This document shows, one piece after another, positions 1 through 13,027 of a DNA stretch of 16,553 bases. A program made the position numbers and the translations under genes. Where the stretch lies: assembly GCA_043778225.1 (NCBI GenBank), contig JAYWGM010000081.1, positions 1-16,553 of the forward strand. The letters run 5' to 3'. Below the pieces are notes generated by a model. It made no database searches, had not been told where the DNA came from, and saw nothing but the letters and a program-made list of their open reading frames with translations. The stretch is from Deinococcales bacterium (GTDB taxonomy: Bacteria > Deinococcota > Deinococci > Deinococcales > JAAFIG01). Position 1 is the first letter of the stretch; every line of letters begins with the position of its first letter.

Positions 1-94
1 ACTTTGAGGGTTTACCGAGTACAACCGAATCTTGGGCTTATTTGGCGAATATTCAGTTGATTTTGAGACGTTTTGACACTTTATAAACACGCTC
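1..94 (+). mobile_element. Right end of an IS5-family (IS1031-like) insertion sequence: transposase C-terminus plus terminal inverted repeat
   Basis: Frame 3 reads FEGLPSTTESWAYLANIQLILRRFDTL* (stop 84-86), resembling the IS5/IS1031 transposase tail (DYERLP..SEA.IYLA.I.L.LRR). It is followed by TTTATAAACACGCTC (end reads GAGCGTGTTTATAAA on -) and TAA at 95-97, a TNA-type target. Confidence 0.75.
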
Positions 95-187
95 TAAGAA
101 AAAACTGTACGATGGGGTTTCTCGACTGGTTGCTCACGGGCTTGGGTTGCTTGCCTCGCCTAACCCTGTACAAGCATAAATAAAAAC

Positions 188-225
188 AGGGCGACCCCCG
201 TCGCTAGACGCTCCGTCGCCCCTAC
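188..225 (-). terminator. GTAG-type REP-like hairpin, probable terminator after sufD
   Basis: Minus strand reads GTAGGGGCGAC...GTCGCCCT then GTTTTTATTT, starting 10 nt after the sufD stop; stem arms at 189-195 and 215-221. Confidence 0.6.
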
Positions 226-235
226 GATTTATGAA

Positions 236-1630
236 TTATTTTTCGTCGGTTTCGATACGGTTAAAGCCTTTTGGCGCACCAACTTTATTGGCAATTACTT
301 CCTCGAGGTACTTGACCACATTTTTAAGCGGCACACGGTTCAGCACATCCTCGAGAAACGCCGTGACCAGCATTTTCTCAGCAATGGGTTTGGTAATCCC
401 TCTCGAGCGCAAATAGAACAGTTCTTGTTCATCCACTGGCGCGGTGGTGCTGCCGTGGCTACAACGCACATCGTTGGCGTTAATCTCGAGTTGCGGCACA
501 CTGTCCGAACGGGCTTCGTCGGAAAGCAATAATGTGCGGTTCTTCTGGTAGGCATCGGTTTTTTGTGCGTTTAATTCGACTTTGATTAGCCCCGAAAACA
601 CGCCCCTTGCTTGGTCTGCCAGTACACCCTTAAAGAGCAAATCCGAATGCGCCCGAGGCATAATGTGATGCTGCAAAGTCTGCTGGTCAAAGTGCTGGTC
701 TTTATCAGCAAAGTAAATTGCCAGCATTTCCGAACTCGAATTGGTTTGCAAAGCACTTTGCACCTCGGTTCTGGACAGGCTCGAACCCATTGTTACATAC
801 AAACTATTCAGTACCGCATCCGACTCGAGGTTTGACTTGATGCGCTGAATGTGGGTCACACCACGACCCCAGTTTTGAATTGCCACATAACGCAAATTTG
901 CACCTTTACCAAGGAAAAGTTCAACCACACCAAAATTAGCTGATTTGAGGTCTGGGCTGTCCTGCTCGTCAATATAAGTGACCTTGGCATTCTCCTCGAG
1001 AACCACGAGTGTGCGCGAAGCCACAAAAGCACCGTCCTGCTCGAGATAACGAAAACCACCAAGTGGCAAGTCAAGCTCGACATTTTTTGGCACATACAAG
1101 AAAAAACCGTTCTCCCAAAAAGCAGCGTTTAACGCCGTGAACTTATCTTCGTCCAAATGCGGAATATGTTCATACCGCTCGAGGGCAAGGGCGCTTGGGT
1201 CTGGGTACGCCGCGCCAACCACACTGTACAAATACTTCTGTACAAGGTCTGGGTGTTTCTCGAGGGCGGTTTTGAGGTCTGTAAAAATAACGCCCTTCGA
1301 CTCGAGTTCAGACGGCACATCCGAGTAAATAACAGAATTACCAGACAGCACAATGCGACCAGCCGCATCGGTGCTAGACAAACGCTCACGAATTTTTTCA
1401 GGTAGTGCCTCGAGACTGCTGATTGGGCTAACGGCATTGGCTGGAACGAAATTCTCGGGTTTGAAACGCCGCAGATTCGTGTACTTCCACGCTTCGACTG
1501 CTGTAGAAGGCACAGCGCGGTCAGTGTAAATCTCGAGGGCAGAAGCTCGAGCTTTGAGCAGCCATGCGGGTTCGGCACGGCTCGAGATGGCGGAAAGATT
1601 GAAGGGCGATAGGGTGGTTACTTGGGTCAT
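236..1630 (-). CDS. sufD: Fe-S cluster assembly protein SufD
   Basis: EAWKYTNL N-terminal motif; beta-helix with QKTDAYQKNRTLLLS, PQLEINANDVRCSHGST and LFYLRSRGI. Start placed at ATG 1630 behind an AGGAG RBS (ORF track extends to 1696). Confidence 0.93.
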   Translation of the reverse strand: MTQVTTLSPFNLSAISSRAEPAWLLKARASALEIYTDRAVPSTAVEAWKYTNLRRFKPENFVPANAVSPISSLEALPEKIRERLSSTDAAGRIVLSGNSVIYSDVPSELESKGVIFTDLKTALEKHPDLVQKYLYSVVGAAYPDPSALALERYEHIPHLDEDKFTALNAAFWENGFFLYVPKNVELDLPLGGFRYLEQDGAFVASRTLVVLEENAKVTYIDEQDSPDLKSANFGVVELFLGKGANLRYVAIQNWGRGVTHIQRIKSNLESDAVLNSLYVTMGSSLSRTEVQSALQTNSSSEMLAIYFADKDQHFDQQTLQHHIMPRAHSDLLFKGVLADQARGVFSGLIKVELNAQKTDAYQKNRTLLLSDEARSDSVPQLEINANDVRCSHGSTTAPVDEQELFYLRSRGITKPIAEKMLVTAFLEDVLNRVPLKNVVKYLEEVIANKVGAPKGFNRIETDEK

Positions 1631-1655
1631 GATTGATTTTCTCCTAAAAGTGTTA

Positions 1656-2204
1656 TTACAAGCATCGGTTTTCCGTTTTTCCATCAAAGTAAACATGTTT
1701 TGAAGACACAGCTATAGTTCGGTCATTTGGCGTAAAAAACCCATTTTCTCGTGACAATGAATGGTCACTAAGGCAAGCACCTGCAAATTGACCTGAAGTC
1801 ACATCGTAGACCTGCCATTCCAAAGATGGATTTACACGTCGCGTAATTTGCGAGGCAGGGAATAGATCGTTAGGACGAATCTTAGGGTATTGGATACTAA
1901 AACTCCATTCAGAATTTGGCTCTGTATCAGCTTTTGACAAATCGTAAAAGGTGACATACACGACTTCTCCCACTTCGGGAACATTATAGATTAGTATTCG
2001 AGCATTTTTTATTTTTACCTCTTGAAAAGGGAAATCCTTATATCCATTTGGAGATGAAATCAATCGAGACAATAATTCGTTGACCGAAAAATCCAGTCTA
2101 CTTGCATTGGGCAAATTACCAGAACGAGCATAATAATAACGAGGAGGTTGCATACAAGAAACAAAAAGACAAAGAAGGCATATCACAATTAATTTTTTGG
2201 ACAT
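1656..2204 (-). CDS. Hypothetical lipoprotein (cassette cargo)
   Basis: 182 aa; MSKK, a hydrophobic stretch and a lipobox-like FVSC; no recognisable domain. Confidence 0.65.
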   Translation of the reverse strand: MSKKLIVICLLCLFVSCMQPPRYYYARSGNLPNASRLDFSVNELLSRLISSPNGYKDFPFQEVKIKNARILIYNVPEVGEVVYVTFYDLSKADTEPNSEWSFSIQYPKIRPNDLFPASQITRRVNPSLEWQVYDVTSGQFAGACLSDHSLSRENGFFTPNDRTIAVSSKHVYFDGKTENRCL

Positions 2205-2227
2205 AAAGTTTTCCAGTTTTATCTCGC

Positions 2228-2286
2228 GTAGGATGGGCTTTGCCCATCAACTTATATCCGACTATCTTCTATTTCTTTCTCGAGCC
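2228..2286. repeat. GTAG-REP-containing leader, copy 1 (GTAG-GATGGGC-TTT-GCCCATC) ending in a truncated cassette repeat
   Basis: Perfect 7-bp stem after GTAG (2228-2248); about 59 bp homologous to 4124-4181. Confidence 0.8.
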
Positions 2287-2289
2287 AAA

Positions 2290-2547
2290 TCACCTTTCGT
2301 AAATTTTGCTTCTATGCCCAACAGCGATGAGCGTCACCACCCGTTCTACTTCATTGACATTAAAAATCAGTCTGTAATCACCAACTCGAGTCCGAAATGA
2401 TTGTCGGTCTGTTAATTTAAGTACACCTTGCTTGAATGGATTCTCGAGAATAAGCTCAACTTCTTTAACAACCCTCTTTTGGATTTCCTCAGGTAAATCT
2501 TCAAACTCTTTATTAAAATGCTTGGAAAGTTGTAAAGCAAACCTCAT
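2290..2547 (-). CDS. relE: RelE/ParE-family type II toxin
   Basis: 85 aa with KL...FRTRVGDYRLIF...VGHRSKIY motifs; ATGA overlap with the upstream gene. Confidence 0.9.
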   Translation of the reverse strand: MRFALQLSKHFNKEFEDLPEEIQKRVVKEVELILENPFKQGVLKLTDRQSFRTRVGDYRLIFNVNEVERVVTLIAVGHRSKIYER

Positions 2548-2726
2548 TTTAAGCCCACTCGAGCCTGAAGTTCTTCAAGTGTTGTCGGGATTACTTCGTC
2601 GTTAGCACGTTCAATAAGAATTTGTTTGTGCCATGTCTCCTCGAGCATTTGTTCGTACTCCTCGAGTGGCAGTAAAACAAAGGTATTTCCTGTCTCATCT
2701 GTAATTTGCTGATGGGCTGTAAGCAT
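2544..2726 (-). CDS. Antitoxin partner of RelE (acidic, Phd/YefM-like VLL.LEEYE segment)
   Basis: 60 aa, acidic, translationally coupled upstream of relE, AAGGAG RBS; paralogous to 4463-4708. Confidence 0.75.
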   Translation of the reverse strand: MLTAHQQITDETGNTFVLLPLEEYEQMLEETWHKQILIERANDEVIPTTLEELQARVGLK

Positions 2727-2753
2727 TTTTATACTCCTTTCTTCTATTCTTTT

Positions 2754-2773
2754 CTCGAGCCTTGGCTGCTTGC
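2754..2773. repeat. Cassette-boundary repeat CTCGAGCCTTGGCTGCTTGC
   Basis: Exact consensus copy touching the vapC stop codon (2773-2775). Confidence 0.9.
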
Positions 2774-3180
2774 TAGGTTCTTTCTATCCAATTCTCGAGT
2801 CTCAAACCCCGAATTCTTGCAAAATGCTTTGTATTATCTGTCACCAGTACCGCTTGTTCGTATAAAGCAGTTGCAGCAATTAACGTGTCGGCATCTTCAA
2901 TAAGTTTTCCTTGGGGTTTAAGTTGTTGATAAATTTCGGATGCAGTATCTAAAATTTCTATGTTCAACATAATAATTTCAGCTTTGCTTAGAAAGGCTTT
3001 GAACTTACTAAGTTTTTTCTGGTATTTAGGAAGCGTTAAGCCTCGAGTAATTTCATAATAATTGATTGCGCTGATTATGAAAACATGACCATCATCATGT
3101 AGGAATTCAAGGGTTTTCACAACAACTTCGTTATCCTCGATAATGGCAGAAATAATATTTGTGTCAGGCAAGTATTTCAT
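2773..3180 (-). CDS. vapC: VapC PIN-domain toxin
   Basis: 135 aa with YLPDTNIIS, YYEITRGL, DADTLIAATAL and LVTDNTKHF. Confidence 0.92.
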   Translation of the reverse strand: MKYLPDTNIISAIIEDNEVVVKTLEFLHDDGHVFIISAINYYEITRGLTLPKYQKKLSKFKAFLSKAEIIMLNIEILDTASEIYQQLKPQGKLIEDADTLIAATALYEQAVLVTDNTKHFARIRGLRLENWIERT

Positions 3181-3434
3181 TGATTAGCTGCCCGCCAAGG
3201 TTGGCGTTTTATGGCTTCTTTGAATTCGGCTAAATCTTCGGCTGGCATCGGTTCGGCGAGTTCACGTAGGATTTGTTTGAATTCGTCTTTTTCAGCTTGC
3301 GTTCTTTGCGCTCGAACATCTGGCAAATCTGGATATTTGAAAGCGGGGTCTGAATCAATAACTTTTTTTAGGCGCTCGAGGGTGACTTCGTTCATTTGGT
3401 CTAAGCGTTGTGTAATTTCTTCGCGCATGGTCAT
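3177..3434 (-). CDS. Putative VapB-role antitoxin
   Basis: 85 aa from ATG 3434 (GAGGTG RBS); ATGA overlap with vapC; shares PDVR..RT..E...LAEP with three paralogues. Confidence 0.8.
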   Translation of the reverse strand: MTMREEITQRLDQMNEVTLERLKKVIDSDPAFKYPDLPDVRAQRTQAEKDEFKQILRELAEPMPAEDLAEFKEAIKRQPWRAANQ

Positions 3435-3453
3435 GGTTTCACCTCTGGCTTGA

Positions 3454-3552
3454 TTATAGGGCTTTAGCTCGAGCTTTGAGCAGCCATGCGGGTTTGGCAC
3501 GGCTCGAGATGGCGGCGGGGTTGAACGGCGATTGGGTGGTTAATTGGGTCAT
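3454..3552 (-). pseudogene. sufD: Truncated duplicate of the sufD 5' end (32 codons)
   Basis: Reads MTQLTTQSPFNPAAISSRAKPAWLLKARAKAL*; 3466-3552 matches 1544-1630 at 79/87 nt by hand alignment. Confidence 0.9.
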
Positions 3553-3559
3553 AATTACC

Positions 3560-4072
3560 TCAGAGACTAAAAACATCTTCAATCACAATATTCTTGAATC
3601 GTTCATCGAGATTGAATTTGACGGCTCGTATAACATCTGTTGGAATTGAAAAATAGACAAATAAGCCTTTACTGGAATTTGAATAGAAAGAGACCGATTC
3701 ATCATTATTAAACGAATCTACTGCCCCAGAAATTTGGTATGCAACGAATTTTTTTGAATCTGATGTTTCTATTGACATATATTTTGGTGATAAAATAGCT
3801 GTCACATCTCCTGATAAACTTGTCCAAGAAATGTCACACAGAACTTTAGACTTATCTGTGGGGTTTCGCAAGCAACCAGAAAACTCTACTTTTAGTTTGT
3901 TGCCTCGAGTATCGACATAGGTGATTGACCGCTTCGATTTTTCAATAATTGTTGCGTTACTCGAAGTGTTTGTACTATTGGTCACACTAGGGGATGTTGT
4001 AATCGAGTTCTGATTAGGCATACATCCTGTGAATACCATAGCGCCAATTACAGATATGATAATTTTTTTCAT
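3560..4072 (-). CDS. Hypothetical lipoprotein (cassette cargo)
   Basis: 170 aa; MKK, hydrophobic stretch, lipobox FTGC, S/T/N-rich linker, then a beta-rich domain; GGGAG RBS. Confidence 0.75.
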   Translation of the reverse strand: MKKIIISVIGAMVFTGCMPNQNSITTSPSVTNSTNTSSNATIIEKSKRSITYVDTRGNKLKVEFSGCLRNPTDKSKVLCDISWTSLSGDVTAILSPKYMSIETSDSKKFVAYQISGAVDSFNNDESVSFYSNSSKGLFVYFSIPTDVIRAVKFNLDERFKNIVIEDVFSL

Positions 4073-4123
4073 ATTTTTCTCCCAACACTTTACTTGACTT
4101 CTTTTTCTTGAGTTTCATCTCAT

Positions 4124-4193
4124 GTAGGATGGGCTTTACCCATCGAATTATAGCCGACTATCTTCTACTCTATCTCGAGCCTTGGCTGCTTGC
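4124..4193. repeat. GTAG-REP-containing leader, copy 2, plus a full cassette repeat (4174-4193)
   Basis: GTAGGATGGGCTTTACCCATC at 4124-4144; TATAAT on the minus strand; repeat abuts the relE stop at 4194. Confidence 0.85.
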
Positions 4194-4466
4194 TTATTTA
4201 TAAATATCTTTGCGCCTACCAACTTTTCTTACTTCTAGCACTTGTTCATCTCTTATAAAAATAATTCTTAAATCTCCGACTGCTAAACGATATTGTCCCT
4301 TAAATTCGCCTTTCATTTGCTTTATATCACCCATTGCTTCGGCGCACAGTATCAGCAACGCAGCCCATAGTTGTTCTTGTTCTAAACGTTCTAGCTTCCC
4401 AAATTCTTTAGCAGCTTTCTTAACAAAACGCAGTGCGTATGGCACATCTCGAGGGTGAATACTCAT
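4194..4466 (-). CDS. relE: RelE/ParE-family type II toxin
   Basis: 90 aa with GDIKQMKG...YRLAVGDLRIIF...VGRRKDIYK. Confidence 0.88.
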   Translation of the reverse strand: MSIHPRDVPYALRFVKKAAKEFGKLERLEQEQLWAALLILCAEAMGDIKQMKGEFKGQYRLAVGDLRIIFIRDEQVLEVRKVGRRKDIYK

Positions 4467-4708
4467 GGTTCTATTGGGAAGTTCTTGGGTAGTTCAAGTT
4501 GAGCTTGCAATTCCTCGGCACTGATGGTTTCATTGTTCTGACTTTCAATTACAGCTAGGCGTAAATCAGTTATGGCATCCTCGGTTAATTCTTCGTCGTC
4601 ATGGTCGTAAATACCATTTTGCTTTTTGAAAACCTCGTACTCCTCGAGCGACAAAAGTACAAAAGTTTGACCCGCTTCGTTGGTTAATTTTTCGTGAGCT
4701 GCTATCAT
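4463..4708 (-). CDS. Antitoxin partner of RelE
   Basis: Acidic; MIAAHEKLTNEAGQTFVLLSLEEYE aligns with 2544-2726; alternative start at 4720; ATGA overlap with relE. Confidence 0.75.
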   Translation of the reverse strand: MIAAHEKLTNEAGQTFVLLSLEEYEVFKKQNGIYDHDDEELTEDAITDLRLAVIESQNNETISAEELQAQLELPKNFPIEP

Positions 4709-4762
4709 TAGTTTAACCATCCTTTTTTTGTTTAACTCGAGCTACCTACATTTTATTCTTTT

Positions 4763-4782
4763 CTCGAGCCTTGGCTGCTTGC
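4763..4782. repeat. Cassette-boundary repeat
   Basis: Exact CTCGAGCCTTGGCTGCTTGC, 7 nt from the vapC stop at 4790. Confidence 0.9.
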
Positions 4783-4789
4783 TTATGCT

Positions 4790-5200
4790 TCACATAACGC
4801 CATCTTCCCAGTTTTCAAATCGAATTCCTATTACTCGAGAAAAATGCTTTACATTTCTGGTTATCAGTACGGCTTTATGGCGAATGGCTGTGGCTGCAAT
4901 GAGTGTATCGGAAATCCCAATGTCGTTTCCTGTGCTGGTCAATTCAAAATGGATGCTCGAGGCGGTATCAGCCGCTTCTTTGTCGAACCATAAACAGGGG
5001 TAAGTGTTGGCAAATTGCTCAAGCCGAGCAAGTTTGAGGGCATATTCGGGTTTGAGTAATCCTCGTTTGGCTTCCCAGAAAACGATGGGACTAAGAGTGA
5101 TTCGGTGAAGTTCCTGTACGGCGCGATTCAACCGAGCTTTACAGGCTTGATTTTCATTAATTATTTGTGAAACAAAATTAGTATCTAAAGTGTAAAACAT
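4790..5200 (-). CDS. vapC: VapC PIN-domain toxin
   Basis: 136 aa with YTLDTNFVS, FWEAKRGL, SDTLIAATA and LITRNVKHF. Confidence 0.92.
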   Translation of the reverse strand: MFYTLDTNFVSQIINENQACKARLNRAVQELHRITLSPIVFWEAKRGLLKPEYALKLARLEQFANTYPCLWFDKEAADTASSIHFELTSTGNDIGISDTLIAATAIRHKAVLITRNVKHFSRVIGIRFENWEDGVM

Positions 5201-5440
5201 TTATTTCTCGTATAACCAAGGACGGTCTCGTTTTAAGCCTTCGTTATATTCGGTTAAATCAATTCCAAGTGGTTCTGCAAGTGCTTCGGTAGCATCTAGT
5301 AAGGCTTGGGTTTCTTCTGGTGTCCGATTTTCTCGAATATCAGGGTATTCATCGTTTGCCTGTTCAATTTGCTTGATAAATTCGGCGTACTCAATTGGGT
5401 TTAGATTTTTGACTTGATGGACAATTTCAGCGACTGACAT
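5201..5440 (-). CDS. Putative VapB-role antitoxin
   Basis: 79 aa from ATG 5440 (GGGGG RBS); stop directly abuts the vapC ATG; YPDIRENRTPEE...LAEP motif. Confidence 0.78.
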   Translation of the reverse strand: MSVAEIVHQVKNLNPIEYAEFIKQIEQANDEYPDIRENRTPEETQALLDATEALAEPLGIDLTEYNEGLKRDRPWLYEK

Positions 5441-5482
5441 AAAACCCCCTTTGCTTCTTTGATTGTAACGCTTTTTAATTTT

Positions 5483-5502
5483 CTCGAGCCTTGACTGTTT
5501 GC
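5483..5502. repeat. Cassette-boundary repeat (degenerate)
   Basis: CTCGAGCCTTGACTGTTTGC, 18/20 to consensus. Confidence 0.8.
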
Positions 5503-5511
5503 CAATGCCAA

Positions 5512-5550
5512 TCAATTCTTATAAACCTTGCTCCGATGCCTTACCGTGCT
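5512..5550 (-). pseudogene. C-terminal scar of a deleted RelE-type toxin
   Basis: Reads STVRHRSKVYKN* versus IAVGHRSKIYER* of the RelE at 2290; followed by a boundary repeat. Confidence 0.6.
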
Positions 5551-5964
5551 TTATTCACGGCTATCTTCGATCCAATTTTCGAGCCTGATGTTTGGTACTC
5601 GAGCAAAATGCTTGGTGTTATTCGTAATGACTACTGCTTGATGCCGAATGCCTGTAGCTGCAATTTTGACATCTTCTTTGTCGAGTTGTAAACCTTGTAT
5701 TTCTAAAGTGTGGTAAATATCGGCTGCATACTCGGCAGATAAAGCATCAAAAGGTAAAACCCTGAACTTATTTGTTAATTTTTTTAAGGCAGCTAATTTT
5801 TTGAAAAGTTGTGGTTTTAATAAACCTCGTTTGACTTCAAAGTACGAAACTGCGTTCATGGTGATGTCGTGACCCTCAAAGGCTTTGATATGAACAAACA
5901 TTTCAAGCGCATGATTTTCATTCACAATTCCAGAGATGGTATCTGCATCCAAAGTATAAAGCAC
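5551..5964 (-). CDS. vapC: VapC PIN-domain toxin
   Basis: GTG start at 5964 behind an AAGGA RBS; LYTLDADTIS, YFEVKRGL, EDVKIAATG and VITNNTKHF. Confidence 0.9.
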   Translation of the reverse strand: MLYTLDADTISGIVNENHALEMFVHIKAFEGHDITMNAVSYFEVKRGLLKPQLFKKLAALKKLTNKFRVLPFDALSAEYAADIYHTLEIQGLQLDKEDVKIAATGIRHQAVVITNNTKHFARVPNIRLENWIEDSRE

Positions 5965-5971
5965 ATTTTCC

Positions 5972-6187
5972 TTAACGCTGCATGGCTGCATTGAACAGAT
6001 TTTTTTCTTCTGTGGTCATTGGTGCGGCAAGTTCAGCCAATAACGTTTTGATTTCCTGCATTTCTTCTGGGCTGCGCTCAACTCGGACATCTGGATATTC
6101 GTATGACTCGAGAATTTTGTTCAACCATTCAATTCGCTCAGACGACATTGTTTCTATTTTTTGGTGTAGTTGTTCTTTGGTACTCAT
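5972..6187 (-). CDS. Putative VapB-role antitoxin
   Basis: 71 aa; YPDVRVERSPEE...LAAP; GAGGTG RBS; directly upstream of vapC. Confidence 0.8.
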   Translation of the reverse strand: MSTKEQLHQKIETMSSERIEWLNKILESYEYPDVRVERSPEEMQEIKTLLAELAAPMTTEEKNLFNAAMQR

Positions 6188-6224
6188 GATTTCACCTCTG
6201 GCTTTATTCTAGCGCTTTTACTAG

Positions 6225-6244
6225 CTCGAGCCTTGGCTGCTTAC
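6225..6244. repeat. Cassette-boundary repeat
   Basis: CTCGAGCCTTGGCTGCTTAC, 19/20 to consensus; abuts the stop at 6245. Confidence 0.88.
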
Positions 6245-6469
6245 TCATGCAAACTCGAGTTCGGCTGTTCTGCCCGCACTTGGGTCTTGTTCCACCAATG
6301 CCCGCACTAGCGTCTCGAGCCGCAATGCTACGCCCATACTATGCGCTCTGAGTTCTTCACCATCTGGTAAATGATGGATATGGGTTGGAACTCCTTTTAT
6401 TGTGACATGAACTCCTTCTCGAGTAGTAATTTTATAATCCATTTTAACTTCATTAAGAATTTGACTCAT
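6245..6469 (-). CDS. YgiT/MqsA-like (cysteine-less) putative antitoxin
   Basis: 74 aa from ATG 6469 (AAGGAG RBS); G.V.I.GVP...GEE...VA..LE.L pattern; downstream of a DUF4258-like gene. Confidence 0.65.
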   Translation of the reverse strand: MSQILNEVKMDYKITTREGVHVTIKGVPTHIHHLPDGEELRAHSMGVALRLETLVRALVEQDPSAGRTAELEFA

Positions 6470-6477
6470 TTCGCTCC

Positions 6478-6792
6478 TTAAATTGTATGAACTGTAATAA
6501 CTAAGAAGTTGTTGACCCAAGCCACTTTGGTACGAATCCAGCGCCCATCTGCAATTTTATACTCAAAATTAATTCCTGGAATGCGTTTGTTGGAATTTCG
6601 CGGTAAATCTTTACTTACGGGTGTACCTACTAAAATAGTCTCGAGAACAGCAACAAGTGGAATTTTTTCTTTATTGGCTTCTTCTTGGGCGTGTTCGCTA
6701 ATTTGAATTTCTTGGAAAATAAGGGCTTGGTGAATTGCGTCTAATTCTGATTGGAGTATTTCTGGTGTTGAAAAATTGAATGGGTTTCTCAT
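6478..6792 (-). CDS. DUF4258-like putative toxin
   Basis: 104 aa with ISEHAQEE...I....V.E.I..G and C-terminal LVITVH, typical of DUF4258. Confidence 0.75.
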   Translation of the reverse strand: MRNPFNFSTPEILQSELDAIHQALIFQEIQISEHAQEEANKEKIPLVAVLETILVGTPVSKDLPRNSNKRIPGINFEYKIADGRWIRTKVAWVNNFLVITVHTI

Positions 6793-6881
6793 AAATTATT
6801 ACTTACCAAAACCTTTGTGCGTACAACCTGATCTTTTTTGAGCATTGCACTGATGGTATTAGAATCGAGCAAGTAAATCAT
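6789..6881 (-). pseudogene. vapC: Truncated vapC (first ~25 codons only)
   Basis: MIYLLDSNTISAMLKKDQVVRTKVLVSNNL* carries the PIN N-terminal motif; ATGA-coupled to the upstream antitoxin. Confidence 0.8.
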
Positions 6882-7120
6882 TGAATCTCTCGGCTATGGG
6901 GGCGGCGTTCTAGGGCTTCAAGCAACGGATTAATATTTTCGTTTGGCTGAGTTGCCGTAAAAGCATCTAAACGCTGATTAAAAAGCGCTATTTCCTCTGG
7001 GGTTCGTTGCACTCGCACATGAGCAGCTTGACGATGTTGGGTCAGGAGCGTATTCAACCACTCGAGGTCAGCTTGGCTCATGGTGTCAATGGTTTGTTTT
7101 ACTTCTTCTCGAGTTATCAT
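6878..7120 (-). CDS. Putative VapB-role antitoxin (toxin partner truncated)
   Basis: 80 aa, paralogous to 5972-6187 (I.TMS....EWLN, VRV.R.PEE); same GAGGTGAAATC-ATG leader. Confidence 0.78.
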   Translation of the reverse strand: MITREEVKQTIDTMSQADLEWLNTLLTQHRQAAHVRVQRTPEEIALFNQRLDAFTATQPNENINPLLEALERRPHSREIQ

Positions 7121-7160
7121 GATTTCACCTCTAGCTTTATTGTAGCGTTTTTATGATTTT

Positions 7161-7180
7161 CTCAAGCCTTGGCTGCAAGC
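7161..7180. repeat. Cassette-boundary repeat (degenerate, CTCAAG core)
   Basis: CTCAAGCCTTGGCTGCAAGC, 17/20 to consensus; 1 nt from the stop at 7182. Confidence 0.8.
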
Positions 7181-7181
7181 T

Positions 7182-7406
7182 TTATGTAAACTCGAGTTCA
7201 GCGCGTCTGCCCGCACTTGGGTCTTGGGCTACCACGGCTTTAACCAATGCCTCAAGCTTGAGTGCCACCGCAAAACTATGTGTTTGTAGTTCCTCTCCAT
7301 TTTCGTAATGGCGTAAACGAGTTGGAACACCTGTAATTTTAACGTACACACCTTCGGGAGTGGTCACGTCGTATTCCATTTTGATTTCGTTCAGAATTTG
7401 GCTCAT
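7182..7406 (-). CDS. Orphan YgiT/MqsA-like putative antitoxin
   Basis: 74 aa; 49/74 identical to 6245-6469 by hand alignment; no DUF4258-like gene upstream. Confidence 0.7.
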   Translation of the reverse strand: MSQILNEIKMEYDVTTPEGVYVKITGVPTRLRHYENGEELQTHSFAVALKLEALVKAVVAQDPSAGRRAELEFT

Positions 7407-7454
7407 AGGTTCTACCTTCATTTGGAGTTTAGCGCCTTTGGTTTTTCAAAATCA

Positions 7455-7784
7455 TTATATCATTTCAAGGATTTTATCCGATATAAGTTTTGTTTCAGCA
7501 ATGACTTTTTGTTGTTGGAGTTGACTTTCCCATGTTGTTGCCCAAGTCAATTGCCATTGCGCGAGTTGGATTTGATATTGCACCAGAATTTCTGAAATTT
7601 CAGGTGTTGTTTCAGTAGCAGTCCATTCAATAAAACGTACACTTTCAGCTAATAAGTTTCGTACACTTTCTGAAGTATTTTTCTTGGCAAATACACTCAC
7701 TCGGTTGAGATTAACTGCCAAATTGCCAAGTCGTCTCGAGATTGGGTCTTTAACAAATTTTTCTTTTCGAGCGTATTCGGTCAT
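7455..7784 (-). CDS. Hypothetical helical protein (type recalled as a DUF5674 neighbour)
   Basis: 109 aa, RLGNLAVNLNRV...ES..FIEWTA...Q.QLA.WQ; AGGAG RBS. Family link is from recall only. Confidence 0.65.
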   Translation of the reverse strand: MTEYARKEKFVKDPISRRLGNLAVNLNRVSVFAKKNTSESVRNLLAESVRFIEWTATETTPEISEILVQYQIQLAQWQLTWATTWESQLQQQKVIAETKLISDKILEMI

Positions 7785-7888
7785 GGTTTTACTCCTGCAA
7801 AGAGTTTTGTAACTATTTCTTGGATTTGTTGTCGCAAAGTAGGGTCTTGTACTGGAGTGACTTTTTCTTGAATAATTTGGATGCTCAT
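7781..7888 (-). pseudogene. 35-aa ORF, probable internally deleted DUF5674-like gene
   Basis: MSIQIIQEKVTP-VQDPTLRQQIQEIVTKLFAGVKP*; ATGA overlap with the next gene; looks like the N- and C-termini of DUF5674 joined. Confidence 0.5.
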
Positions 7889-7900
7889 GATGTCCAATTT

Positions 7901-7923
7901 GGGGTTTGCAAAATGCAAACCCC
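7901..7923. terminator. Perfect hairpin after sufB (terminator or mRNA-stabilising stem)
   Basis: GGGGTTTGCA-AAA-TGCAAACCCC, a 10-bp stem 7 nt after the sufB stop; no good U-tract on the minus strand. Confidence 0.55.
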
Positions 7924-7930
7924 TTAAATT

Positions 7931-9361
7931 CTAGCCGACGCTGCCTTCCATCTCGAGTTCAATTAAGCGGTTGAGTTCCACGGCGTACTCGAGTGGGAGT
8001 TCTTTGGCGATGGGTTCGATGAATCCGCGTACAATCAGTCCTGTTGCGGCTTCCTCGGACAACCCTCGAGACATGAGGTAGAACACTTGTTCATCGTTAA
8101 TTTTAGAAACGGTGGCTTCATGTCCAACCGAAGCAGTTTTTTCTTCAATTTCGATGTACGGGTACGTGTCAGTTCGGCTGTCATCATTTAACAAGAGCGC
8201 GTCGCATTCGACGTTGCTTTTGGCATTTTTTGCCCCGTCATAAATTTTGACTAACCCACGGTAACTCGAGCGACCATTGTTTTTGCTAATGCTTTTAGAC
8301 ACGATGCTCGAGCTTGTGTTGGGTGCAAAATGCACAACTTTGCCACCAGCGTCTTGGTGTTGCCCTGTGGTTGCCATGGCAATGCTCAGAATCTCGCCAC
8401 GAGCGCCCGGCTCGAGCAAATACGTGGCTGGGTATTTCATGGTGACTTTGCTGCCGAGGTTGCCATCCACCCATTCCATGACTGCGCCTTCGTAGACGGC
8501 TGCCCGTTGGGTCACAAGATTGTAAACATTGTGCGACCAGTTTTGAATCGTGCTGTAACGCATCCGAGCGCCTTTTTTGACAATAATTTCGATGACACCA
8601 GAGTGGAAGCTGTCCGAGGAGTAACTAGGTGCGGTGCAACCTTCGATGTAATGGGCGTAAGCACCTTCATCAATAATAATCAGGGTGCGTTCAAATTGCC
8701 CAGAATTTTCGGCATTAATCCGAAAATACGTTTGCAATGGCACTTCGACTTTTACACCTTTTGGCACATATACAAAGCTACCACCAGACCAAACGGCGCT
8801 GTTGACGGCGGCAAATTTATTGTCTTCGGGCGGAATGACTGTGCCAAAGTGTTCACGGAAGAGTTCTGGATGTTCACGCATTCCATCTTCGATAGACAAA
8901 AATATCACACCGAGCTTTTCCCATTCTTCTTTCAGGTTGTGGTAGACCATTTCTGATTCGTATTGAGCGCCAACACCTGCCAGCATTCCGCGTTCGGATT
9001 CTGGAATACCAAGTTTATCAAAAGTGCGTTTAATATCGTCTGGAACATCGTCCCAAGTTCGACTGTTGAGCATATCGGTGGGTTTGATGTAATAATAAAT
9101 GTTCTCGAGGTCAAGCCCACTTAAATCTGCGCCCCATTTTGGAATTGGTTTGCTGCGGTAAATGTCGAGCGCTTTCATGCGAAACTCGAGCATCCAAGCG
9201 GGTTCGTCTTTGGATTTACTAATCAGTTCAACCACGTCTCGAGATAAGCCTTTGGGGGCTTTAATCGTGTATTTTTCTGGTTCTGACCAGCCAAATTCGT
9301 AACCATCGTTAATTTTTCCAACGGCGGCATCGGGGATGTTATCGGAGTATTGTTGGGTCAT
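7931..9361 (-). CDS. sufB: Fe-S cluster assembly protein SufB
   Basis: 476 aa with GVGAQYESE, DNKFAAVNSAVWSGGSF, GQFERTLII, YIEGCTAP, HEATVSKI and ELEMEGSVG. Confidence 0.97.
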   Translation of the reverse strand: MTQQYSDNIPDAAVGKINDGYEFGWSEPEKYTIKAPKGLSRDVVELISKSKDEPAWMLEFRMKALDIYRSKPIPKWGADLSGLDLENIYYYIKPTDMLNSRTWDDVPDDIKRTFDKLGIPESERGMLAGVGAQYESEMVYHNLKEEWEKLGVIFLSIEDGMREHPELFREHFGTVIPPEDNKFAAVNSAVWSGGSFVYVPKGVKVEVPLQTYFRINAENSGQFERTLIIIDEGAYAHYIEGCTAPSYSSDSFHSGVIEIIVKKGARMRYSTIQNWSHNVYNLVTQRAAVYEGAVMEWVDGNLGSKVTMKYPATYLLEPGARGEILSIAMATTGQHQDAGGKVVHFAPNTSSSIVSKSISKNNGRSSYRGLVKIYDGAKNAKSNVECDALLLNDDSRTDTYPYIEIEEKTASVGHEATVSKINDEQVFYLMSRGLSEEAATGLIVRGFIEPIAKELPLEYAVELNRLIELEMEGSVG

Positions 9362-9720
9362 AAAGCTCCTTGTGAGGCAGGGGTTTTCTCGAGAATGCTG
9401 ATGAACTCTGTATAGCCGAAATCATCCATCATGCCGTTTGAACCGTACTGATAGACACGCAACTTGTATTGAAATCCAGCTTCGTGGGTAAAACCTTTAA
9501 TTGAACCATGAAAAAAAGTATTGCTGACGGAAGTATCGCGGACTTGGATGCAGTTCTGGATAGATTCTGGTGGGGCTGATGGACGTGGGTCGGTGTAGCC
9601 GCCAAAGCCTCCTGAACAAGGCTTGGTCTGTGCTGCGACTTCAACGGTTTTTACAGTCACACTGCGAACATTACAAGCAACCAAAGCTAACGCCAACGGA
9701 ACAAAAAATCTTATCTTCAT
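9358..9720 (-). CDS. DUF4377-like lipoprotein
   Basis: 120 aa from ATG 9720 (GGAGG RBS); lipobox LVAC; CIQVR...IKGFTHEAGFQYKLRV resembles DUF4377; ATGA overlap with sufB. Confidence 0.7.
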   Translation of the reverse strand: MKIRFFVPLALALVACNVRSVTVKTVEVAAQTKPCSGGFGGYTDPRPSAPPESIQNCIQVRDTSVSNTFFHGSIKGFTHEAGFQYKLRVYQYGSNGMMDDFGYTEFISILEKTPASQGAL

Positions 9721-9762
9721 ATTGCCTCCACTTTGAATTGCCTGCAAAACTTGCTCGAGAAT

Positions 9763-10524
9763 TTAGAACGCAACGACGGGTTGTGCGGCTGCAATAGCTT
9801 TAATTGGTTCGTAGCCGTTTTCCTCGAGTTCTACGGCTAATTCTTTGCCACCAGATTTTACAATGCGTCCATCGACCATGATATGCACCATGTCTGGCAC
9901 AATAAACTCGAGCAGGCGGTTGTAGTGGGTAATCATCAGGGCGCTAAAATTGGCGCTTCGCATCGCGTTGACACCCTTGGCTACAACTTTAAGGGCATCA
10001 ATATCTAAGCCAGAATCGGTTTCGTCCATCAGGGCGCAGCTTGGCTCGAGCATCAGCATTTGCAGGATTTCATTGCGTTTTTTCTCGCCGCCGCTAAAGC
10101 CTTGGTTCAAATAGCGATTGACCCAACTTTCGTCCCAGTCGAGAATCTCGAGGGCGCGGGTCAGTTTTTTATAAAAATCCATAAACTGGACTTCTTGTCC
10201 AGTGCGGGCTTGGATGGCGAGGCGCAGAAAGTTGGCGACCGTCACACCGGGAATTTCGACTGGGTACTGAAACGCCAAGTACAGCCCTTGGCGGGCGCGT
10301 TCGTCTGGCTCAAGTTCGAGGATATTCACGCCGTTGTAAAGTACCTGTCCGCGTTCAATGGTGTATTCGGGTGCGCCAGCAATGGCTTTCACAAGGGTGC
10401 TTTTACCGTTGCCGTTTGGTCCCATAATTGCATGGAATTCACCGGCGGGGACGTGCAGGTTTACACCTTTGAGAATCATTTCGCCGTCTATGCTGACCCA
10501 TAAATCTTTTATTTCGAGGTTCAC
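9763..10524 (-). CDS. sufC: Fe-S cluster assembly ATPase SufC
   Basis: Walker A GPNGNGKST, AFQYPVEIPGV, GFSGGEKKRNEILQ and DETDSGLDIDAL; GTG start with AAGGAG RBS. Confidence 0.97.
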   Translation of the reverse strand: MNLEIKDLWVSIDGEMILKGVNLHVPAGEFHAIMGPNGNGKSTLVKAIAGAPEYTIERGQVLYNGVNILELEPDERARQGLYLAFQYPVEIPGVTVANFLRLAIQARTGQEVQFMDFYKKLTRALEILDWDESWVNRYLNQGFSGGEKKRNEILQMLMLEPSCALMDETDSGLDIDALKVVAKGVNAMRSANFSALMITHYNRLLEFIVPDMVHIMVDGRIVKSGGKELAVELEENGYEPIKAIAAAQPVVAF

Positions 10525-10583
10525 GTTTTTCTCCTTGGATTCGAGCTTTTGGCGGCTCGAGGAATGCTGATTGCATTATGCTA

Positions 10584-10639
10584 TTAGGAATGATTCCTAA
10601 CTAGAGTTTAGATTACATGAGTTAGGCTGCGAATCTCAA
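10584..10639 (-). promoter_or_regulatory. Putative suf promoter with an 8-1-8 palindromic operator
   Basis: Perfect palindrome TTAGGAAT-G-ATTCCTAA at 10584-10600; minus-strand TTGAGA (10639-10634), 18 nt, TAATCT (10615-10610) just upstream. Confidence 0.6.
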
Positions 10640-10747: not shown

Positions 10748-11344
10748 CTAATGCGTTTTGATGAAATTGACTGCTGCGGAGCGCACCTGCTTTTTTTGGT
10801 CTTTGGTCAGGGCGAGCCTGACTTCTAAAGGCGTGTTATACGCACCTGCCACGGCAACGCGAGTGAACTCATAAGTATCTGTGGCAAGTTTGGTGAGCAC
10901 CGAGGCTGGGCAATCTACCCTCAGCGCTGCGTAGAAACGAACATCGTCTTCGGGGTCTTGACTGAGTAATTCGTATAAATGCGCCGTCAGATTTTGATTT
11001 TGAGTTAATGCCATACGCACACTGAGTTCTGGGTGTTTGGTTAAAGTCTCGAGTAAGGTCGTGGATGTGCTGGTACTTGTGGCGACTGCTTCAACCACGG
11101 TCGGTTGTTTTTGACCAGCCAGCTTCTCGAGGATTGCCGAACTGACATTTGGGTTGTGCGCCAAGGCTTTGAGGATTGTCCATTTGCCGTGTCCACTCAG
11201 GTACTCGAGGGCGGCAACAGGTGTATTGGGATTGCTTGCCACGGCATACTGCACGGTTGGGTCGGGGGTTCGAGCCAACTCGAGTAAACGTGGTGCAAGA
11301 GTTTTTTTGCTTTTGGCTTCTTTTTTTAAGACTGCAATGTCCAT
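10748..11344 (-). CDS. HEAT/LRV (leucine-rich repeat variant) repeat protein
   Basis: ~24-aa repeats of the V..AVA.NPNTP...LE.L type; GGAG RBS; probably co-transcribed with tetR. Confidence 0.8.
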   Translation of the reverse strand: MDIAVLKKEAKSKKTLAPRLLELARTPDPTVQYAVASNPNTPVAALEYLSGHGKWTILKALAHNPNVSSAILEKLAGQKQPTVVEAVATSTSTSTTLLETLTKHPELSVRMALTQNQNLTAHLYELLSQDPEDDVRFYAALRVDCPASVLTKLATDTYEFTRVAVAGAYNTPLEVRLALTKDQKKQVRSAAVNFIKTH

Positions 11345-11360
11345 AGATTTTTCTCCGATT

Positions 11361-11996
11361 TTAAGTGCGAATAATGATACCCTCTAAAGTCTGCCGAACC
11401 ACATTTTGTGCCATGGCTTTGGCACTTTTGGCGGTGGTGGTTTTGCTGATTGGACTCTCGAGGAGAATGGTGCTGAGCCCGTGAACCACGCTCCATAAGG
11501 TTAAAGTTAAGTTCTGTGGGTCGCTTTTTTGAATTTGATTGGCAGCCTGTGCCTCGAGAATTGTAGTTTGTAGCACCGCTCGGGCATCTATTCCAGCCAC
11601 CTCGAGCGGGTCTGGAAGTCCGAACGCAGCGCAGAGTTCACGGCGAAACATAAACCGAAATTCGGCATGGTGTTCATAAGCAAACATCACATAAGCAATG
11701 CCAATCTGTTCAAGTTGCTCGAGCGGGCTGTGTTTTTTTTGCTTGGCGTTTTTTAGGGCATCGGTCAGCTTGCGAAAGGCTTCGATTGCCAAGGTACGAA
11801 TTAAATCTTGTTTATCCAAAAAGTGATGGTACGGCGCAGCAGGGGAGACGTTCGCCCGACGAGCCACTTCACGCAACGTAAAGTTGTCCACACCAATTTC
11901 GTTGGCGAGTTCTCGAGCCGCCTCGAGCAAGGTATTTTTAAGGTCGCCGTGGTGATAGCGCTCTGGTTTGACTTGGGTTGCACTTAAACTTGACAT
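11361..11996 (-). CDS. TetR/AcrR-family regulator (WHG-type C-terminal domain)
   Basis: YHHGDLK...TLREVARRANVSPAAPYHHF HTH; C-terminal LWSVVHG. Confidence 0.93.
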   Translation of the reverse strand: MSSLSATQVKPERYHHGDLKNTLLEAARELANEIGVDNFTLREVARRANVSPAAPYHHFLDKQDLIRTLAIEAFRKLTDALKNAKQKKHSPLEQLEQIGIAYVMFAYEHHAEFRFMFRRELCAAFGLPDPLEVAGIDARAVLQTTILEAQAANQIQKSDPQNLTLTLWSVVHGLSTILLESPISKTTTAKSAKAMAQNVVRQTLEGIIIRT

Positions 11997-12012
11997 TGTT
12001 TAGATTCTAGCA
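11986..12012 (-). promoter_or_regulatory. Leaderless tetR promoter with an operator over the start codon
   Basis: Minus strand TG-C-TAGAAT, 7 nt, ATG, with no RBS; imperfect palindrome AACTTGACATTGTTTAGAT also found at 13113-13131. Confidence 0.65.
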
Positions 12013-12022
12013 CAATGACCGA

Positions 12023-13027
12023 TTACTCGAGCATAAGAACTTCAGTAATTTCGGGTATCTGCCTGAGTTGTGCCATGAAACCCTCGAGTGGTTTTTGCAT
12101 CGAAAACCAAGTTTTATGAAGTTCAATCACCAGATTTACCTCTGGGTTATCCTGATAAAGATACGTGCCAGAGCGGTGTTGGTGGGGCGAAAGAATGGCA
12201 TAGATATTTCTGGTTCTGCCTTCTTCTTCTGACCACGCCAGCACTTCGGCGTATTCTGAATTGTTATTTTCGGCATAGATTCTCAGCGTTTGATCATCTA
12301 AATACAGTGGCAGATGCCCACTGTGCCATGTTTCAAAATTGTAATAACCAGAGCGGTCATCGTTTTCGTAGCTTTTGAAGGTCATCTTAAAGTGTTCAGC
12401 CAGTGTTTGAATGGTGTTTTTGTAATCCACTTGGCTGACAACGCCAATAAAAATTTCCAATTGGTTTTCGCTGTCAATTTTGAGGTTTTGCAAAAAAATT
12501 TCAAAACTTTCAAAGCGAGCAATCTCAGCAAACCCTAAAAAGCTCTTGTTATCATCATCGGTGCTGTAGGCATCATCGTCTATGATCACCACTTCTGGCG
12601 TTTCTAAAATTACTTCTGAGCGATAACCGTAATCAAAGCAAATTGTGCCATGACCGTCTAAATCCGAAAAAATAATCAGGCGTTCAGGGTAAAACGGCAT
12701 TAAGGTTTGCTTGGCTTCTAACAGGTCTTCGTCGCTGTAGGTTGCCAAAATATAATTGTTAAACTGATAGATGTAATAATCCAAGTCTAGGCGTAGCTCT
12801 CTAAAACCAGAATTAAAACTAAATTGGTCTACGCCGTTGATTTGGCTGTAGCGCACACTACCGCCATTTTGTAGTTGCATGATTTTGCGATAATTACTTG
12901 GTAGGGCAAACCCAATTTTTGCCTCAAACGCATCCAATTGTGCGGCACTTCTGCCTTGGCTATGCACATCAAAGCCTTCGGCGGGTTGCTTAAAAAAGTT
13001 TGGATATTGTCTATCACCTATTTGCAT
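12023..13027 (-). CDS. SMI1/KNR4 (SUKH) family protein
   Basis: FEAKIGFALPSNYRKIMQLQNGG motif plus ICFDY and FESFEIFL; extended C-terminal domain. Confidence 0.85.
   Translation of the reverse strand: MQIGDRQYPNFFKQPAEGFDVHSQGRSAAQLDAFEAKIGFALPSNYRKIMQLQNGGSVRYSQINGVDQFSFNSGFRELRLDLDYYIYQFNNYILATYSDEDLLEAKQTLMPFYPERLIIFSDLDGHGTICFDYGYRSEVILETPEVVIIDDDAYSTDDDNKSFLGFAEIARFESFEIFLQNLKIDSENQLEIFIGVVSQVDYKNTIQTLAEHFKMTFKSYENDDRSGYYNFETWHSGHLPLYLDDQTLRIYAENNNSEYAEVLAWSEEEGRTRNIYAILSPHQHRSGTYLYQDNPEVNLVIELHKTWFSMQKPLEGFMAQLRQIPEITEVLMLE

Follow-up and report, generated by a model that had tools for sequence, protein, structure and literature searches.

In an uncultured freshwater Deinococcales bacterium (contig JAYWGM010000081.1 of assembly GCA_043778225.1), the essential iron-sulfur assembly genes sufB and sufD are separated by an array of small genes that includes toxin-antitoxin pairs. 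The window, i.e., the whole stretch of DNA that was analyzed, is the entire contig of 16,553 bases and stems from a 4.03-Mb metagenome bin that is 89% complete. Between the two suf genes, an interval of 6.3 kb (1631-7930) holds 21 small genes and gene fragments, every one on the suf strand (minus), and is punctuated by seven copies of a short repeat, here called R. This agrees with an earlier description made from the letters alone (hereafter the first-pass annotation), which had seen co-oriented, repeat-separated small genes at this junction. The content and order of the array vary among relatives, its joints are marked by breakpoints and gene scars, part of it is flanked by a target duplication, and integron parts are lacking. 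The reading we favor, with moderate confidence, is an integrase-free hotspot. Short-homology recombination at R and at the hexamer CTCGAG would have assembled and rearranged it, with incoming DNA, anchored in the suf genes, as the probable source of new material.

Read from sufB, the array opens with a DUF5674 remnant, p109, p79, R, vapB80, a 30-codon vapC fragment, a DUF4258-like gene, p91 and R. It continues with vapB71-vapC146, a relE 3' scar, a degenerate R, vapB-vapC136, R, phd85-relE90, R followed by an element labeled 'REP', and lipoprotein A. The last part comprises a copy of the sufD start of 99 nucleotides (nt), vapB86-vapC135, R, phd60-relE85, a partial R with a second 'REP', lipoprotein B and finally sufD itself. 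The proportion of guanine plus cytosine (GC) is 0.40 in the array versus 0.47 in the rest of the window. As the first-pass annotation had noted, neither an integrase nor a transposase lies within it: these families were found in none of the 22 window proteins scanned and nowhere in the 16.5-kb contig. A search of the array DNA against plasmids and phages in distant mode gave no nucleotide match.

A comparison with relatives supports the view that this junction is an insertion site. The sufB gene was found in 41 of 41 related genomes, and in five genomes of the same order (G019, G025, G027, G033 and G039) the sufB and sufD matches lie only 2-106 nt apart, in line with the adjacency that the first-pass annotation had taken to be normal. 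Two loci of family f3 show a gap of 0.4-0.85 kb. Within the window's own family (f1), inserts of 0.7-6.2 kb occur wherever both genes are on one contig, and these draw on the same module families in different mixes and orders. The minimal form, sufB-vapBC-sufD, is present in a metagenome contig of this family (L022), and comparable arrays occur in six sister species. The module vapBC135 illustrates the permutation. Its orthologues (77-88% identity in VapC) are preceded by the copied sufD start in the window, by p91 and R in G004, by p109 and R in G007, and directly by sufB in G014, while only the vapB of this module is left in G015, again directly behind sufB. Downstream of these orthologues, either phd60, phd85 or vapB71 is found. 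The proposal of a variable hotspot with breakpoints at R is thus supported, as both content and order differ among relatives and R is found at the breakpoints. A metagenome scan with SufD retained 80 loci with one close relative among them (L022, 84%) and no population sample of arrays.

Other orders of the same modules were also recovered from two freshwater metagenomes of other studies (X3 and X4), in which module pieces are 90-99% alike. Three of their joints lead from one R copy to another, namely from 2753 to 6225 (X4), from 6220 to 2752 (X3) and from 6226 to 2756 (X4). The resulting orders, p91|R|phd60 and vapC135|R|vapB71, are reciprocal to the one in the window. Two more joints fall within homologous vapC 3' ends. 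In our reading, the X3 and X4 joints stem from different linear orders, such as that of G007, rather than from circles. Array stretches that are uncovered in X3 and X4 carry no evidence of absence.

On the coding strand, R reads as a stop codon followed by AGCAAGCAGCCAAGG and then CTCGAG. It forms a linker of 20-24 nt that starts 0-7 nt past the stop of VapC, RelE or p79/p91 genes, and its left edge is sharp, coinciding with the stop codon of genes that are unrelated to each other (VapC, RelE, p79/p91, p109). The repeat search returned seven copies of 33 nt with 70-100% identity to the reference, five of them full, one degenerate and one partial, all on the minus strand. From sufB onward, copy 1 (7149..7181, 82%) has a core hexamer decayed to CTTGAG, copy 2 (6213..6245) contains the exact 17-mer, copy 3 (5471-5503, 76%) is the degenerate one, copy 4 (4751..4783, 97%) again contains the exact 17-mer, copy 5 is joined to the first 'REP' (4111..4194), copy 6 (2742..2774) served as reference, and copy 7 is the partial one (70%; R portion 2267-2299), joined to the second 'REP' (2215..2299). 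The R-to-R joints of X3 and X4 map to copies 2 and 6. The exact 17-mer core occurs four times in the 4.03-Mb genome, and since all four are in the array this is not due to chance. Likewise, a strict R pattern occurs in G006 and G007 only within their suf arrays. Across 185,579 species genomes, the R 18-mer gave 20 scattered single matches, with about 17 expected from length alone. R is present in all six genomes of the genus with array data and absent from the six arrays checked in other genera. Genera g3 and g5 show the same modules shuffled without R, and the junctions in arrays of other genera are strings of p91 and vapC gene tails. R copies look more alike within a genome than between genomes, and their variants are partly genome-specific.

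Just downstream of R, the vapB heads carry a conserved -10-like box and a Shine-Dalgarno sequence. In simple scans, promoter-like and terminator-like sites were not in excess (19 vs. 13.5 +/- 4.3 and 7 vs. 6.9 +/- 2.1 in shuffled controls, respectively), and Rfam gave no matches over 1-10600. As to the origin of R, a resemblance to a 5' stretch of sufD (some 14 of 18 positions, allowing for one gap) and to the 3' end of sufB (about 12 of 17) was considered and rated near chance in both cases because CTCGAG is so abundant. The 57-nt 'REP' exists in two copies in the array that are 88% identical. In its 5' half, the element corresponds to the tail of a vapC146-type gene, which is still intact in G007, and its hairpin (GATGGGTAAAGCCCATC) occurs twice in the array and once elsewhere in the genome, in an unrelated context. 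The interpretation as a dispersed REP element, implied by its label in the first-pass annotation, was therefore dropped.

Breakpoints were counted as clustered ends of homology blocks among the six arrays of the genus (n = 136). A number of 30 block ends lie at most 3 nt from a CTCGAG, compared to 10.5 +/- 3.0 by random placement, and none of 2000 placements reached 30. With R excluded, 16 of 113 block ends are within 3 nt (5.7% expected; p = 8e-4) and 27 of 113 within 6 nt (8.4% expected). Many breakpoints coincide with CTCGAG sites other than those of R or fall inside sufD. Several joints consist of one intact CTCGAG with unrelated sequence on its two sides. Gene scars tell a similar story: vapC tails that begin at the last CTCGAG of the gene are fused to R in G001, G003 and G004, and p91 tails that begin at a CTCGAG are fused to R in G007 and G011. 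Units of a vapC tail plus a short R are even repeated in tandem in G001 and G003.

One event in this genome is a tandem doubling within the array. Both halves are laid out alike as vapBC | R | phd-relE | R+REP | lipoprotein | sufD start. Their linkers are 88-100% identical (R 97%, REP 88%, sufD' 88%), while their proteins are only 30%, 40%, 37% and 30% identical, and lipoproteins A and B are unrelated (no blastp match at E <= 10). The copied 5' end of sufD, designated sufD' (3458..3556, minus), is 88% identical to 1536-1634 and represents a long target duplication of 99 base pairs (bp), with a repeat spacing of 1,922 nt. The joint between sufD' and the head of vapB lies within CTCGAGCTAAAGC, which is common to the sufD start and to the sequences of R plus vapB head. 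A second sufD start is found only in this genome (one of 11 loci); the other ten loci all have one.

The hexamer CTCGAG is itself exceptional. With 24,877 copies in 4.03 Mb, or one per 162 bases, it is the commonest hexamer of the genome by a factor of three over any other and reaches about 25 times its expectation (about 984 copies at 1 in 4096), without flank preference. In the family, its density ranges from 4.7 to 8.2 per kb (16 of 16 loci). Among sister families, two loci of one have none and a locus of another has 4.2 per kb. CTCGAG is thus a palindrome that is over-represented more than 10-fold, both genome-wide and across the lineage, as in HIP-type words. Within the window, it occurs at 5.1 per kb in the array and 6.5 per kb in the rest. 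Such a density in the array, despite its lower GC content, suggests that the modules have long been resident in CTCGAG-rich genomes. The gene for lipoprotein A has one CTCGAG in 513 nt and that for lipoprotein B none in 549 nt, and by this measure the two lipoprotein genes look more recently imported. Other palindromes are nearly absent from the genome: GGCGCC occurs three times, compared to about 2,072 expected, GACGTC once, TGCGCA 11 times, CTTAAG eight times and GTGCAC nine times. A literature search for CTCGAG with palindrome terms found no paper on this word.

A scenario that would account for these observations starts with an old vapBC insertion that split the sufB-sufD junction. Since then, modules would have been added, lost and permuted via recombination at short shared sequences, of which R would be the chief one in this genus. 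The cargo of the hotspot would comprise small addiction-type modules (VapBC, Phd-RelE/ParE, pairs with DUF4258 or DUF5674) and, immediately ahead of sufD, a single gene that varies. As CTCGAG occurs every 160 bases or so, microhomology-dependent joining is most likely to find this very word. Deletions between the CTCGAG of R and a CTCGAG near the end of vapC or p91 could have left the gene tails at the junctions. In this genome, a block of 1.9 kb (vapBC135 | R | phd60-relE85 | R+REP | lipoprotein B | sufD 5' end) may have been joined at a CTCGAG inside the sufD start, which would have generated the 99-bp target duplication and placed two allele-like versions of the locus in tandem. The conserved suf genes would serve as a homologous anchor for incoming or sister DNA, and R or CTCGAG as the second joint. 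New modules were presumably supplied by incoming DNA from relatives. The recombination pathway could be either RecA-dependent at short homology or illegitimate joining, and the toxin-antitoxin pairs may have a selective role.

A number of points weigh against this scenario. Stretches of 17-22 nt are short for efficient RecA-dependent exchange. Competence is no more than possible: homologues of ComEC and DprA are present, but both families also match in non-competent control genomes. Furthermore, 106 of the 136 block ends lie more than 3 nt from any CTCGAG, at least one scar junction (L007/G007) is at TAGG rather than at CTCGAG, and the enrichment at CTCGAG is overstated because the ends of BLAST segments can drift to a shared hexamer and because the six arrays are kin. 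The apparent likeness of R copies within a genome fits repeated site duplication equally well. Finally, the stop-anchored left edge of R is not explained by microhomology alone and could reflect a protein-recognized site or a selected function.

These last two points lead to a rival explanation in which a dedicated site-specific recombinase, encoded at another place, acts on R, i.e., a trans-acting, integron-like system in which each insertion duplicates R. The first-pass annotation had called the array integron-like, and the array does consist of co-oriented cassettes that vary between relatives with breakpoints at a repeat. The sharp edges of R directly after stops of unrelated genes, together with the genome-specific variants, are the best arguments for such a recombinase; the attC sites of sedentary chromosomal integrons behave similarly to these variants. 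In addition, permutations can be placed at R (the reciprocal joints of X3 and X4 among them), each genome has R at a single locus only, and three tyrosine recombinases are encoded elsewhere in the genome. However, these score 67.9, 40.5 and 29 bits, far from the cut-off of 265 for integron integrases (TIGR02249), and neither intI nor any other recombinase gene was detected in the contig or, for intI, in the genome, which is 89% complete. An attC site is an imperfect inverted repeat of about 57-141 nt with a fold in single-stranded form. No inverted repeat is present in R, and R junctions treated as single-stranded DNA (eight folds, both strands) gave z values from -2.45 to +0.52 with no pairing other than that of CTCGAG to CTCGAG. 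The R-less shuffling in g3 and g5 and the many breakpoints at other CTCGAG sites and inside sufD also argue against it. The integron label was hence abandoned, and a recombinase acting on R seems unlikely. Cutting at the hexamer rather than at R would be another route, in which a CTCGAG-specific activity (an XhoI-type nuclease plus ligase, or a nickase) moves modules as CTCGAG-bounded fragments. Joints with unrelated sequence on either side of an intact CTCGAG, the enrichment of block ends at the word even outside R and the maintenance of the word at about 25 times expectation across the family are what such an activity would leave. Yet, the same joints fit a microhomology of 8-9 nt, (G)CTCGAGAA, and both the left edge of R and some scars are not at CTCGAG. 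The genome has no match to the XhoI nuclease family, which says little since 14 control genomes also gave none. Altogether, we consider cutting and rejoining at CTCGAG very unlikely.

The tandem layout admits two further explanations. One or two modules may have been duplicated locally and diverged, while R and 'REP' were kept alike as regulatory pieces (promoter, insulator or RNA-processing site). The shared architecture of the halves, the -10-like box and Shine-Dalgarno sequence downstream of R and the restriction of R to the array are in line with this, but paralogues that are 30-40% identical or unrelated contrast with linkers at 88-100%, R stands behind non-homologous genes, the same module occurs in five contexts in relatives, and regulatory sites are at the level of shuffled controls without an Rfam match. 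Local duplication is therefore quite unlikely. Alternatively, the array or its doubling could be a chimeric assembly of strain variants, considering that the genome is a metagenome bin, that the halves look like alleles of one locus and that the contig ends 235 nt past sufD. However, Logan contigs of about 8 kb, assembled from two runs of a single study at depths of 26 and 14, cover 1300-8200 without a single difference. That study is probably the source of the sample, so these contigs represent an independent assembler and not an independent sample. The words shared at the sufD'-vapB joint measure 9-16 nt, which is presumably too short for a k-mer path, and the comparable arrays in six sister species speak against a chimera as well. 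The array is not a chimera of one assembler, and the chance that an assembly artefact underlies it or its doubling is extremely small. Short-homology recombination at R and CTCGAG thus remains our preferred explanation. A bolder version holds that CTCGAG is the active recombination word of the family, at which a dedicated activity cuts, nicks or pairs, with R as its preferred composite site. We regard this as quite improbable. If true, it would amount to an integrase-free, word-guided exchange of cassettes that works like an integron without its parts, and a hyper-abundant word would gain a function of the kind that is still debated for HIP1.

The toxin-antitoxin labels of the first-pass annotation held in part. 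The three PIN toxins all exceed the Pfam cut-off (PF01850), with E-values of 1.9e-15 for vapB86-vapC135 (2773..3434, minus), 2.5e-14 for vapB-vapC136 (4790..5440, minus) and 9.9e-11 for vapB71-vapC146 (5551..6187, minus; the two proteins of the orthologous pair in L007 are 87% and 91% identical). Scores of the window toxins against the NCBIfam VapC models are below the cut-offs. The proteins in the vapB position match no known antitoxin family, be it in Pfam, NCBIfam or PDB profiles, where a search with the vapB alignment gave only matches at E 0.03, to an unrelated ligase. They do have an antitoxin-like position and coupling in all vapB-vapC pairs across loci. A complex model of vapB86 with vapC135 scored 0.88, compared to 0.00 for the best of three controls, where the mark applied is reached by 116 of 157 solved complexes and by 2 of 215 mismatched pairs; at least 97% of contacts are shared between its runs, and the partner pLDDT is at least 87. 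The pair is accordingly predicted to be a real toxin-antitoxin pair in which the antitoxin binds the toxin, although part of the score may stem from likeness to known structures, as VapBC complexes have already been solved. A proportion of the 38 PIN matches in the genome is local, with three stacked at this locus, and the matches are spread over many contigs.

The relE labels fared unevenly. The toxin of phd60-relE85 (2290..2726, minus) passes Pfam with 38.7 bits for ParE_toxin (cut-off 23), while phd60 reaches 19.4 bits for PhdYeFM (cut-off 29.8). For phd85-relE90 (4194..4720, minus), relE90 remains below the same ParE_toxin cut-off with 19.8 bits and phd85 has no match; the two proteins of its orthologous pair in L002 share 79% and 94% identity. 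The scar of a relE 3' end (5481..5547, minus), which runs into R copy 3, is 82% identical over 68 nt to a relE85-like 3' end plus R in L006. The DUF4258-like gene of 104 amino acids (6478..6792, minus) scores 18.1 bits, below the Pfam cut-off of 25, and has a 64% identical copy in L001 beside a p91 homologue. With regard to the possible role in defence or anti-addiction suggested in the first-pass annotation, PADLOC yielded only one match at E <= 0.001 among 17 window proteins, a weak one of 18.6 bits for vapB71. Family assignment failed for nine of the 22 scanned proteins.

The remaining modules, again all of them on the minus strand, lie mostly in the sufB-proximal part. A hairpin with a 10-bp stem (7901..7923), located immediately behind the stop of sufB, was seen by inspection of the sequence and recurs behind sufB in G005 and G003. 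The DUF5674-like pair of the first-pass annotation is only half intact. Its first gene, p45 (7781..7918, ATG at 7888), is a remnant with an internal deletion that matches only the N- and C-terminal ends of an intact gene in L009 (116 amino acids; DUF5674 at E 5.5e-31). Next to it, p109 (7455..7784) is the partner of DUF5674 in relatives, with 64-66% identical homologues behind DUF5674 in L009 and L010, and has no Pfam or NCBIfam match. The genes p79 (7182..7421) and p91 (6245..6520, conserved start at 6472) form one family at 67% identity; p79, labeled an orphan antitoxin in the first-pass annotation, has no Pfam or NCBIfam match and p91 is the second gene of the DUF4258 pair. Searches of the ESM Atlas with p79 and p109 gave no usable lead. 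Members of the p79/p91 family occur as the second gene after two different partners, either a DUF4258-like protein or, in G001, a p109-like protein of 124 amino acids with a 4-nt overlap. They may act as a shared antitoxin or adaptor. Finally, vapB80 (6878..7120), which can be aligned with other vapB-position proteins, is an antitoxin-position gene with a truncated toxin. The vapC 5' fragment that follows it (6789..6881) comprises 30 codons, and its translation (MIYLLDSNTIS...) resembles the N-termini in the VapC alignment.

The slot immediately upstream of sufD holds a different gene in almost every genome (window 1656-2204 and 3560-4072; L002:3207-3989; L009:2696-3379). In the window these are two unrelated lipoprotein genes, one as the last gene of each array half: lipoprotein A (3560..4072, minus; 170 amino acids) in half 1, which has a signal peptide and a cysteine upon inspection and no family match, and lipoprotein B (1656..2204, minus; 182 amino acids) in half 2. 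Elsewhere, the gene adjacent to sufD encodes a protein with a PLD-like nuclease fold (PLDc_2, E 1e-18; G004), Trypsin_2 (G013 and G015) or a small membrane protein (G006, G007 and G011). PADLOC matched the last-slot genes of relatives at the domain level only. By its varying content, the last slot is a single-gene hypervariable site downstream of the conserved 'REP' hairpin.

Both anchors of the array are well conserved. The upstream anchor sufB (7931..9361, minus; SUFBD_core E 3.6e-87) shares 91-98% protein identity with 15 full-length relatives of the family. The downstream anchor sufD (236..1630, minus; SUFBD_core E 1.1e-78), with a conserved start MTQV, is 94-96% identical in five relatives of the genus. 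In G002 (L008, 1426-1572), sufB abuts a sufD start without insert (TAG TC ATG) and the contig ends there; this sufD start is 50% identical over 52 residues, compared to 94-96% for sufD in other members of the genus. In G003 (L005) and G005 (L004), sufB ends in the same hairpin, and behind it come an ABC-transporter-like gene and further genes that are likewise unrelated. The sufD of G003 is on another contig (L006:2-133), whose edge holds the 3' end of an IS3-type transposase (rve_2, E 1.2e-4). In these two genomes, either the operon seems to be split or the assembly seems to be broken at the array. Further upstream in the window, a DUF4377 lipoprotein gene (9358-9747, minus) is located between sufC (9763-10524, minus) and sufB. 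It is present in two of six relatives checked (G004 and G013) and absent in the other four (G006, G007, G011 and the outgroup G025), in which sufC directly neighbors sufB. The sufC-sufB junction thus emerges as a second presence/absence slot. The genes upstream of sufC (10748-13027, minus) encode a leucine-rich-repeat-variant/HEAT protein, a TetR regulator and an immunity-type protein of the SUKH/SMI1-KNR4 type, and are unrelated to the array.

A literature search for toxin-antitoxin arrays in sufB/sufD found nothing relevant. If the favored scenario is correct, the locus shows how selfish toxin-antitoxin modules accumulate and are exchanged within an essential operon without the help of an integrase, transposase or phage. 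It would moreover link breakpoints to a palindrome that is iterated throughout the genome, a type of word whose function is still open. The locus, which comes in six species-level variants and shows clear scars as well as one dated insertion, lends itself as a compact natural test bed; its interest hinges on whether CTCGAG actively steers recombination.

Several known systems resemble parts of this picture, and in its mode of working the array would be like linker-mediated shuffling of modules and like insertion with long target duplication. The Vibrio superintegron is a sedentary chromosomal integron array that carries toxin-antitoxin cassettes. Such arrays share with ours the small co-oriented modules, of which many are toxin-antitoxin pairs, the separating repeat with its homogeneity inside one genome, and a content that is variable between relatives. 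In contrast, the array described here has no intI, attI or attC hairpin, its repeat is 20-24 nt, its modules appear to carry their own -10-like boxes, and it resides inside an essential operon. The likeness is one in appearance only. Another comparison is with homology-facilitated illegitimate recombination in natural transformation, reportedly described by de Vries and Wackernagel in 2002, of which the classical outcome is said to be replacement and not duplication. In both cases, one end is anchored by homology (here sufD) and the other is joined at a GC-rich microhomology only a few bases long (here GCTCGAGCT). The outcome here is a duplication, however, and the involvement of transformation would be hypothetical.

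Insertion with long target duplication is said to have been described for restriction-modification units by Nobusato and co-workers in 2000. The doubled block of the window has much in common with such insertions. Its length is below 20 kb, it is of the addiction type, it lacks a mobility gene, its direct target duplication exceeds 30 bp (99 bp of the sufD start) and the site is single-copy in relatives, all of which are features listed for these insertions by Furuta, Abe and Kobayashi (2010, PMC2853133). According to the same study, they occur mostly in naturally competent species, and a case from Thermus thermophilus is listed. The cargo is different: instead of restriction and modification genes, the block carries VapBC, Phd-RelE and a lipoprotein gene. 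Moreover, the insert is an allele-like copy of the same locus and as such one step in a multi-module array. For linkers that recombine modules, T4-type phages offer a precedent in the PeSLs, which Arbiol et al. (2010, PMC2839356) present as promoter and terminator cassettes with a stem-loop. These are likewise short conserved linkers between non-essential small genes, at which modules are inserted, deleted and replaced by recombination without a dedicated recombinase. R differs in that it has no stem-loop, its promoter and terminator sites are not above shuffled controls, and its host is a bacterial chromosome. Finally, CTCGAG recalls HIP1 (GCGATCGC) of cyanobacteria, a palindrome that is hugely over-represented across its lineage and that is discussed as a recombination site (Elhai 2015, PMC4390886; a 2018 article in Nucleic Acids Research, PMC5861425). 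According to the preprint of Kamoku and Nielsen (2024), homologous HIP1 sites placed in homology arms increased integration as much as 7-fold, in a manner resembling Chi. CTCGAG shares the huge over-representation of a palindromic word across a lineage, but it is a hexamer of another phylum, and its putative role in recombination is suggested only by the positions of breakpoints.

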